Shown in pieces: positions 22,864 to 23,499 of a DNA stretch of 64,000 bases. Each line of letters starts with the position of its first letter. The stretch's first letter is position 1. The translations under genes and the position numbers were made by a program. Origin of the DNA: Escherichia coli (GTDB lineage Bacteria > Pseudomonadota > Gammaproteobacteria > Enterobacterales > Enterobacteriaceae); the NCBI RefSeq assembly GCF_003334305.1, contig NZ_QOWS01000013.1. One strand, written 5' to 3'. The notes below the pieces were generated by a model. The model was not told the DNA's origin. It ran no database searches and was given only the letters and a program-made list of their open reading frames with translations.

Positions 22864-22890
22864 GGCAACTTTCCTTCGTTTATTTGCATG

Positions 22891-22919
22891 AATATACAAA
22901 CCGAAAATAGGAGATGCAA
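22891..22919 (-). promoter_or_regulatory. Candidate sigma-70 promoter for the 101-codon orphan ORF
   Basis: On the minus strand TTGCAT, 17-nt spacer, TATATT, placing a start ~20 nt upstream of ATG 22863; hexamer match only. Confidence 0.3.
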
Positions 22920-22953
22920 TACAAAAGCTGTGGAAATATCAAACAGCCTCTCA

Positions 22954-23057
22954 ATTTGGCAGACAGCGTCTGCCAAATCTTTGCCGATGGGAATTCTGCA
23001 GATGGTGTCTGCGGAATTCCCAATGGTGTTAATTCGCCAGACACTGTCTGGCGAATT
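22954..23057. repeat. Array of three palindromes with centres exactly 39 bp apart (22966, 23005, 23044)
   Basis: ATTTGGCAGACagcGTCTGCCAAAT (22954-22978), GGGAATTCTGCAGAtggtgTCTGCGGAATTCCC (22989-23021, one G·T), AATTCGCCAGACAcTGTCTGGCGAATT (23031-23057); shared AATT..CAGAC / GTCTG..AATT arms. Confidence 0.7.
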
Positions 23058-23499
23058 TCAACATGTTGAAAAAAGAGGTAAAAAAGCCTCATTTGGCGTA
23101 AGTTTTTTGCAGAGAAACCACGCTTATACCTTAGACTTAAATCCTTTGATAGTCGCTTGATTAGCTGCGCACCATACGCAGCCCTGGCCTCGCCACCTTG
23201 TTCAAATTCGACAATTCGTCGGCCAATTTCCCAGTATGTCGCGGTCATCAGCGCGTTAACGCTACGTACCGTTTCCGTCCGGGCGCTATCGACCAGGTGA
23301 ATAATACCGTCATGGATTTGCTGGTAGCCTGTTGAGGTTCTCTCTGAGAGCGATTCCATTATCTGTCCCTTTATATGGCGCTGCGTTGAATAATGGAATC
23401 AGCTATACGCCGGGCATCTACCGGTAACAATCCAGATGAGCGTATTACATTGGTTTTCTTCAGATTATGCGAGGCGCTTTCCAGAAAGAAAGGAGAATT

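Follow-up and report, generated by a model that had tools for sequence, protein, structure and literature searches.

A truncated yhcG in Escherichia coli and a covarying hairpin within the genes of the DUF1016/YhcG nuclease family

The DNA analysed here, called the window throughout, is a stretch of 64,000 nucleotides of Escherichia coli from contig NZ_QOWS01000013.1 (assembly GCF_003334305.1), and its subject is a minus-strand open reading frame (ORF) of 159 codons, located between gltD and nanQ, that runs through three palindromic units. The ORF is best explained as a dead remnant of yhcG, a gene of the DUF1016/YhcG family of PD-(D/E)XK nucleases, and the palindromes as native parts of yhcG; a probability of about 85% is given to this reading. 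The truncation itself is a minor matter, being an ordinary pseudogene that has already been annotated. The wider interest lies in the palindromes. DUF1016/YhcG is a large and uncharacterised nuclease family, found in restriction-modification operons, plasmids and prophages and listed as a candidate defence gene, and a hairpin that sits at one codon across phyla with covarying arms is a strong and testable clue to the regulation of these genes or to the structures handled by the enzyme. It also provides a striking case of a nucleic-acid constraint that writes a segment of a protein. No description of such a hairpin was found in the accessible parts of the literature on YhcG, DUF1016, COG4804, PF06250 or PDC-S02, which is no proof of its being unpublished, and this well-supported, family-wide hairpin appears to be undescribed.

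A Pfam search of the ORF returned DUF1016_N alone, at residues 19-111 (model positions 2-93 of 137, E = 1.5e-27), which bears out an earlier model-generated reading of the letters (the sequence-only reading) in which about 100 codons had been attributed to the N-terminal domain of YhcG. Intact YhcG of 375 residues, as encoded by strain PEC1012, carries DUF1016_N at residues 19-184 (model positions 2-137 of 137), followed by the PD-(D/E)XK nuclease domain YhcG_C at residues 208-360. The window and PEC1012 yhcG are identical over 135 codons and diverge fully from 22953, and alignment with full-length YhcG placed the end of homology at 22954/22953, the distal edge of the palindrome array. Because the cut falls after codon 135 of a protein with this domain layout, the loss extends over the final third of the N-domain and all of the nuclease domain. 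The absence of the nuclease domain from all frames, which had been noticed from the letters, was confirmed: YhcG_C (PF06250) was not found by Pfam in the 159-residue translation, and when the stretch of YhcG that contains the PD-(D/E)XK domain (residues 136-375) was compared by tblastn with all six frames of the 64-kb window, there was no match (best E 1.8). The sequence-only reading was also right that the ORF passes through three palindromic units and stops at 22880, but wrong that it terminates inside the palindrome array, as the stop lies 71 nt past the array after 24 codons of foreign DNA. The remnant consists of two thirds of the N-domain and 24 read-through codons, without the nuclease domain. 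The features concerned are as follows.

22880-23359, minus strand: the yhcG-remnant ORF, with an ATG start and 159 codons plus stop
22955-23359, minus strand: the 5' remnant of yhcG (codons 1-135), 100% identical to PEC1012 yhcG and already annotated in RefSeq as a pseudogene with its C-terminus missing
22880-22954, minus strand: the read-through tail of 24 codons plus stop, which is not yhcG and differs from every intact allele below 22953
23360-23542, minus strand: the gltD-yhcG spacer, unchanged in comparison with PEC1012 and presumed to hold the yhcG promoter region
22483-22953, no strand assigned: a foreign segment of 471 bp, absent from intact loci, which replaces the 3' part of yhcG and the yhcG-nanQ spacer

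According to the ORF listing of the window, the plus-strand genes nanE, nanK and nanQ (yhcH) end at 22482, and gltB and gltD occupy the minus strand, with the end of gltD at 23543. The order gltB-gltD-yhcG-nanQ-nanK of PEC1012 is kept in the window. PEC1012 matches 22954-23542 at 100%, the 41 aligned spacer bases 23360-23400 being identical, and K-12 yhcG lies at the same chromosomal position with matched DNA about 92% identical to the window. When 22483-23542 was compared by megablast with 5,426 complete E. coli genomes, the entire stretch was present in 720 of them (about 13%), among which are the laboratory strains REL606 and BL21(DE3); most of the other matching genomes matched from 22954 upward only, inside an intact gene annotated as yhcG, YhcG family or PDDEXK nuclease. 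In an ancestral event, 471 bp of DNA from a prophage took the place of yhcG past codon 135 and of its 3' flank. The two junctions are at the nanQ stop codon and in the outer stem of the last of the three palindromic units, and the replaced DNA included a fourth, non-coding palindromic unit. The accessible part of a preprint on the long-term evolution lines gives yhcG and ECB_03080 at this locus of REL606. The intact allele matches model PDLC04807 of the PADLOC candidate defence system PDC-S02 over residues 8-370 (2e-135), and the window copy is no full-length match, since everything past residue 135 is missing. Compared to intact yhcG (PF17761 plus PF06250; COG4804; PDC-S02), the window gene holds the same position but has lost the nuclease domain and a third of the N-domain; it is a remnant of a known family and not a working member, and it presumably no longer performs the job of YhcG.

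The palindromes of the window gene are three tandem units.

23029-23059, no strand assigned: unit P3, with perfect 13-bp arms AATTCGCCAGACA/TGTCTGGCGAATT, encoding EIRQTVSGEL
22989-23021, no strand assigned: unit P2, imperfect, encoding LGIPQTPSAEFP
22953-22979, no strand assigned: unit P1, encoding KIWQTLSAK, with 11-bp arms and the truncation breakpoint in its outer stem

Bases 22940-23075 fold as three hairpins (z = -7.1 as RNA and -8.3 as DNA, relative to 200 shuffles), and P1 has 11 bp of its arms left compared to 15-16 bp in other Escherichia alleles (loci L059 and L015). Intact alleles carry all three units in frame and the fourth, non-coding unit just 3' of the stop codon, between the convergent yhcG and nanQ. 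The number of units varies within E. coli, always in frame: there are three in K-12 and PEC1012 (375 residues), two in RIVM_C037166 (370 residues) and one in O157:H7 (349 residues). A search for the yhcG palindrome motif in the 64-kb window had its sole match inside yhcG. Because the three units are in frame in intact alleles, the motif is essentially confined to the gene and the codon is homologous family-wide, the palindromes are native elements of yhcG rather than an imported array of repeats. They are an integral part of intact yhcG genes throughout the family, which corrects the earlier description of a repeat tail that the ORF runs into.

Three other accounts of the locus were weighed. 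The sequence-only reading had offered two alternatives, of which a decayed yhcG is upheld by the 135 codons identical to the intact allele; the other, a stand-alone N-domain protein ending in a repeat tail, weighed here as a functional, neofunctionalised short YhcG, is improbable. It has in its favour that neither the start nor the 5' region shows any damage or any difference from functional alleles, which speaks against a wholly dead gene as a residual product may still be made, that some 13% of complete genomes carry the allele, and that PADLOC includes several short models spanning just the N-terminal part of the family. The cut nevertheless removes the last third of the N-domain (model positions 94-137), the 24-residue tail is arbitrary read-through upstream of a foreign gene, and RefSeq treats the copy as a pseudogene; the conservation of the allele is uninformative on selection because it is 99-100% identical in nearly all carriers. 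Hardly credible is the idea that the palindromes are a foreign dispersed repeat, such as a repetitive extragenic palindromic (REP) sequence, a bacterial interspersed mosaic element (BIME) or an element like a miniature inverted-repeat transposable element (MITE), that invaded and broke yhcG. It could account for three similar tandem units with the truncation at their edge, but not for units that are in frame in intact alleles, lack any other copy in the window, gave no match in an Rfam scan of 22000-24000 (E <= 1) and occupy a homologous codon across the family; in 80 loci of the YhcG subfamily, described below, 104 of the CAGAC..GTCTG cores lie within coding sequences and 5 outside.

It is likewise highly improbable that the gene next to the remnant, which encodes a 101-residue protein named "transposase" in RefSeq, belongs to an insertion sequence (IS) that truncated yhcG. 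The name and the fusion of the gene to IS-derived sequence in some Shigella entries favour such an insertion. However, Pfam and NCBIfam gave no match for the protein, which has no recognisable transposase catalytic domain and no transposase-like match of its predicted fold; the segment occurs as one chromosomal copy and never on plasmids, and among the inverted repeats found in the region there was no pairing of the segment ends as terminal inverted repeats. The relatives of the gene are single genes inside prophages, and the flank matches a P2-like prophage region. The reading of the ORF as a remnant of yhcG, cut by replacement with prophage-derived DNA, is preferred to all three.

The hairpins were then followed across the YhcG subfamily in a set of 80 loci, with one genome per species, from many phyla and at 55-98% identity. 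The genes have 1-6 tandem hairpin units, in which nearly every linker motif I-x-Q-T-x-S-y-z is written as a perfect palindrome, ATT NNN CAGAC NNN GTCTG NNN AAT. Four of the five cores outside coding sequences represent the Escherichia unit just 3' of the stop codon, which stays perfect through compensatory change. Amino-acid pairs in the linker covary because the complementarity of their codons demands it: Val (GTG) occurs with Ala-Gln (GCA CAA), Arg (CGC) and Leu (CTC) with Gly-Glu (GGC GAA in the case of Arg), and Leu (TTG) and Trp (TGG) with Ala-Lys. When Gln in a unit is changed to Glu, its partner becomes Arg (GAGAC...GTCTC).

Codon choice within the units was examined by picking them through the peptide QTxS only and comparing them with the rest of the same genes. 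Ser was encoded by TCT in 96% of cases in the units and 15% elsewhere, Gln by CAG in 97% and 58%, and Ile by ATT in 90% and 37%, whereas ACC for Thr fell from 36% elsewhere to 0% in the units. Double-sided changes were found at three stem positions in 49, 45 and 40 of 102 distinct units, and the covariation score was 0.280 compared to 0.106 +/- 0.009 in shuffled sets, with none of 500 shuffles as high. The outer arms had a mean of 4.75 paired bases, and 0.97 +/- 0.15 with shuffled partners. A perfect palindrome with arms of at least 9 bp was present in the linker of 57 of 76 genes (72 such palindromes in all), and elsewhere in the same coding sequences there were 2. A binding site for a dimeric protein was considered as the sole cause of the palindrome and rejected, because pairing extends to the variable inner positions, which are not the same in all units of a gene. 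A protein search with the concatenated linker peptide returned E. coli and Shigella fragments only.

Beyond the subfamily, homologues at 26-53% identity have a hairpin of unrelated sequence at the same codon, just before the conserved L(S/P)WxH motif. They come from Bacteroidota, Actinomycetota, Cyanobacteriota, Fusobacteriota and Pseudomonadota, and were drawn from plasmids of Hymenobacter, Citrobacter, Pseudomonas, Rhodococcus, Aeromonas, Nostoc and Haliovirga and from 61 distinct viral-contig genes; the scan of viral contigs with a narrow alignment gave one locus, and a broader alignment was used for the homologue set. The hairpin of the family has arms of about 8-15 bp with 0-2 mismatches, and it is centred on base 1 of the codon six places ahead of the invariant Trp of L(S/P)WxH. 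Examples, with the loop in lower case, are AATTGCGTCCGCA c TGCGGACGCAATT, CAATTGTCGTGAC gct GTCACGACAATTG, TTGGTCAGCAG c CTGCTGACCAA and AATTTGTGCAA gaggtta TTGCACAAATT. In the 61 viral-contig genes, the mean hairpin score was 8.5 at the site and 4.4 in other windows of the same genes, and in 36 of them the hairpin at the site was the best of the whole gene.

The position was further examined in a fixed-anchor test of 59 distinct genes, in which the centre was set on the first base of codon W-6 and hairpins were not selected. Watson-Crick pairing at distances 2-9 was 63-80%, compared to 25-49% with shuffled partners, and the score over distances 2-13 (12 positions) was 8.25 against 4.51 +/- 0.21 in shuffled sets, the maximum of 1,000 shuffles being 5.1. 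Randomisation of synonymous codons reduced the fixed-anchor score to 4.78, and 56 of the 59 genes lay above their own randomised value. We infer that it is the nucleic acid, and not the protein, that is constrained. A profile of the family compared with solved structures found no relative.

The pairing data bear on whether DNA or RNA is constrained. Stem mismatches in the sense orientation comprised 19 G·T, 35 A·C and 82 of transversion type; of the features expected of a structured cis-regulatory RNA, base-pair covariation is present and tolerance of G·U on the transcribed strand is not. Because the pairing is Watson-Crick only and a structure selected in mRNA should tolerate G·U, the data point to a constraint at the level of DNA, be it a hairpin, a cruciform or a DNA-copying process, and the constraint probably acts on DNA as a hairpin or cruciform. 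The sequence of the stem is free to change provided that both arms change together, and the encoded peptide is dictated by the stem. In the AlphaFold model of YhcG (mean predicted local distance difference test score, pLDDT, of 63), the hairpin-encoded residues 103-134 have a pLDDT below 50 between confident helices, a prediction that fits the peptide being a passenger of the DNA.

Two explanations of the hairpin compete. One ascribes no function to it: an ancestral quasipalindrome in a disordered, mutation-tolerant linker would perpetuate itself, as template switching copies one arm onto the other and mimics compensation. Such copying predicts what is seen in the mismatches, that is, Watson-Crick pairs only, G·T being no more frequent than A·C (19 and 35), and it would suit a peptide predicted to be disordered, a unit number that is free to range from 1 to 6 and the loss of the stem in some lineages. 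Less easily accommodated are a single codon phase and position kept down to about 26-30% protein identity in at least five phyla, a narrow range of arm lengths, the retention in most genes of palindromes that are prone to deletion, and the non-coding copy 3' of the Escherichia stop codon, which is perfect through compensatory change as well. This functionless origin is regarded as rather unlikely. The other explanation is a selected hairpin or cruciform at the level of DNA, common to DUF1016/YhcG genes across phyla, which dictates a disordered peptide and has a candidate role in the biology of the gene itself. Selection is favoured because of the one codon phase across phyla, the narrow arm-length range and the scarcity of loss, and the proposal in this full form is put forward tentatively. 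If true, it would represent an undescribed kind of intragenic DNA-structure element and provide a handle on the function of an uncharacterised family.

Several observations weigh against a selected hairpin and the reading built around it. Cyanobacterial copies hold the peptide motif with a decayed stem, and about a quarter of the distant homologues show just a weak hairpin at the site, so that the hairpin is not indispensable. The units and the homologues are phylogenetically related, and the shuffle statistics therefore overstate their independence. In E. coli, mutation by template switching has been documented at quasipalindromes (PMC7202029), and paired changes could arise through it in the absence of selection. 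The full-length AlphaFold model is only moderately confident, and the link between breakpoint and palindrome comes from one event.

As for what the selected hairpin might do, the family is described as a predicted nuclease with a Holliday-junction-resolvase-like core in the accessible part of PMC1189080, and this resemblance makes self-recognition or a brake on production the natural ideas. The hairpin could throttle production of the nuclease half of the protein, or it could be a structure recognised by the Holliday-junction-resolvase-like domain of YhcG. Selection of the hairpin as a structure-specific cis element of the nuclease genes, acting in one of these two putative ways, is considered fairly probable. 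If the hairpin is indeed selected, its candidate roles are that of a structure bound or cut by the enzyme's own domain and that of a brake or switch on a potentially toxic defence nuclease. The palindrome may in addition act as a fragile site; the position of the breakpoint in the outer stem of P1 fits this idea, and the hairpin may explain the frequent splits and truncations of DUF1016 genes in this region. Recombination between the fourth, non-coding unit and P1 was considered as the cause of the truncation and rejected, because foreign DNA replaced the segment and no hybrid unit is left.

The hairpin resembles several known elements in part, most closely the Rickettsia palindromic elements (RPEs) and integron attC sites, although both differ from it in size, context and distribution. 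RPEs are mobile repeats of 100-150 bp in many unrelated genes of one genus, and Ogata et al. (Science 2000) reportedly found them translated in frame inside protein-coding genes. Both RPEs and the DUF1016 hairpin are in-frame palindromic DNA in an ORF and give a tolerated peptide insert dictated by the DNA, but the hairpin is about 25-31 bp long, belongs to one gene family, holds the same homologous codon from phylum to phylum, and its sequence covaries instead of being conserved. The yhcG units share with REP/BIME sequences the character of short, stable and sometimes tandem palindromes, and one yhcG-type unit also lies between yhcG and nanQ; they are intragenic, gene-specific and variable in sequence. 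REP and BIME are extragenic elements of conserved sequence with hundreds of copies per enterobacterial genome. Integron attC sites are 57-141 bp long, imperfect with extrahelical bases, located between cassettes, tied to an integrase and recognised in folded, single-stranded form. They are similar to the hairpin in that secondary structure is conserved and sequence little so, but their size, extrahelical bases, cassette position and link to an integrase are not seen for the DUF1016 hairpin. Another partial parallel is provided by the quasipalindrome hotspots of template-switch mutation (PMC7202029), in which imperfect repeats are perfected by copying of the arms, which would account for Watson-Crick-only paired changes; the known ones are in individual genes and are not conserved at one position of a family across phyla.

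The foreign segment that took the place of the 3' part of yhcG contains the following features.

22486-22568, no strand assigned: a P2-like stretch, about 80% identical in the prophage comparison to the DNA after the stop of a tail-fibre-assembly gene
22516-22557, no strand assigned: a hairpin with an 11-bp stem and a 20-nt loop, within the P2-like stretch
22558-22863, minus strand: the ORF of 101 codons encoding WP_000639208.1, the RefSeq "transposase", a prophage accessory gene

At least 80% of the length of the segment was found as one chromosomal copy in 717 genomes. Any match to it was found in 726 genomes, at a median of one place and at two at most, with none on plasmids, and the best match had at least 99% identity in 722 genomes. 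The stretch 22486-22568 abuts the TAA stop codon of nanQ, and its relatives flanking tail-fibre-assembly genes are located in P2-like prophages of about 216 other E. coli genomes. The site after the tail-fibre-assembly gene of P2-like prophages is a hotspot for cargo genes. The 101-residue gene, which from its position is most likely ECB_03080 of REL606, forms a cassette with about 90 nt of conserved upstream DNA, a region that the 24-residue tail of the yhcG remnant overlaps, and this cassette recurs, with 82-89% protein identity, in Enterobacter and Yersinia. Among the relatives of the gene in prophages, one converges on a lambdoid N gene, one lies behind a lambda-P-like gene where a cryptic prophage ends, and a third adjoins a phage integrase.

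The protein family is small, with members of about 100 residues: there are 34 cluster representatives among 1.8 billion, and in two proteins the family is present as a C-terminal domain. The 101-residue protein is predicted to fold into a small domain rich in beta structure, with a single helix, and the neighbours in the AlphaFold database are N-terminal domains of HNH endonucleases, McrB-like AAA ATPases and a "ScoMcrA-like head domain" protein (TM-scores 0.6-0.8, E from 1e-4 to 1e-6). The RefSeq name of WP_000639208.1 looks wrong and was probably derived from the Shigella fusions to IS-derived sequence; the gene looks like a prophage gene whose predicted fold resembles the N-terminal domains of type IV restriction enzymes.

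A derivative of the truncated allele was observed in strain EC190486, where an IS1A adjoins the yhcG remnant, the DNA from the 101-residue gene through the nan genes is missing, and dcuC adjoins the IS. Its partial match was considered as an intermediate allele and rejected in favour of a secondary deletion beside IS1.

Around the start of the window ORF, a perfect 11-bp inverted repeat, GATTCCATTAT ... ATAATGGAATC, with 27 nt between its arms (23352-23400), brackets the yhcG start codon and the adjoining upstream DNA. The arms are the same in the K-12-type and window alleles and the loop differs, and the repeat could sequester the yhcG start codon in the mRNA. A scan of 22400-23600 for consensus promoters and terminators gave no match. 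On the plus strand, an ORF of 90 codons at 22888-23160 encodes peptides of the IxQTxSxx type (SIWQTASAKS..., LIRQTLSGEF), and this strand also scores against YhcG residues 100-135 in tblastn (50% identity); the ORF is a mirror effect of the palindromes and not evidence of a gene.

A search of viral contigs with the YhcG-type palindrome pattern returned 41 matches, of which 25 were in YhcG-like genes. The other 16, perfect or near-perfect, lie outside such genes and several are intergenic; some of these palindromes may be ordinary terminators. Perfect palindromes of the ATTNNNCAGACNNNGTCTGNNNAAT type outside YhcG-like genes were seen at loci L100, L104, L111, L119 and L128 among others, several of them apparently non-coding. 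In one viral contig, two identical copies of the palindrome are separated by about 1.3 kb; in another, two palindromes lie side by side.

The plasmid-borne DUF1016 genes of Aeromonas, Citrobacter and Pseudomonas overlap their operon neighbours by 4 nt. In Aeromonas, the gene is in an operon with a DNA methyltransferase and a restriction S subunit; in Pseudomonas, it is accompanied by a type I restriction R subunit, and in Citrobacter by a site-specific integrase. These contexts agree with the enrichment of DUF1016 beside phase-variable restriction genes that is given in the accessible part of a published report.

The gene content upstream of yhcG differs among strains. In the window, gltD is followed directly by yhcG, and the same short arrangement is found in PEC1012 and O157:H7, in which yhcG is intact. 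In K-12, yhcF, an IS5-disrupted yhcE and yhcD lie upstream of yhcG (the fetched stretch ends before gltD), and these genes are taken to be part of a gltF-yhcADEF cluster between gltD and yhcG.

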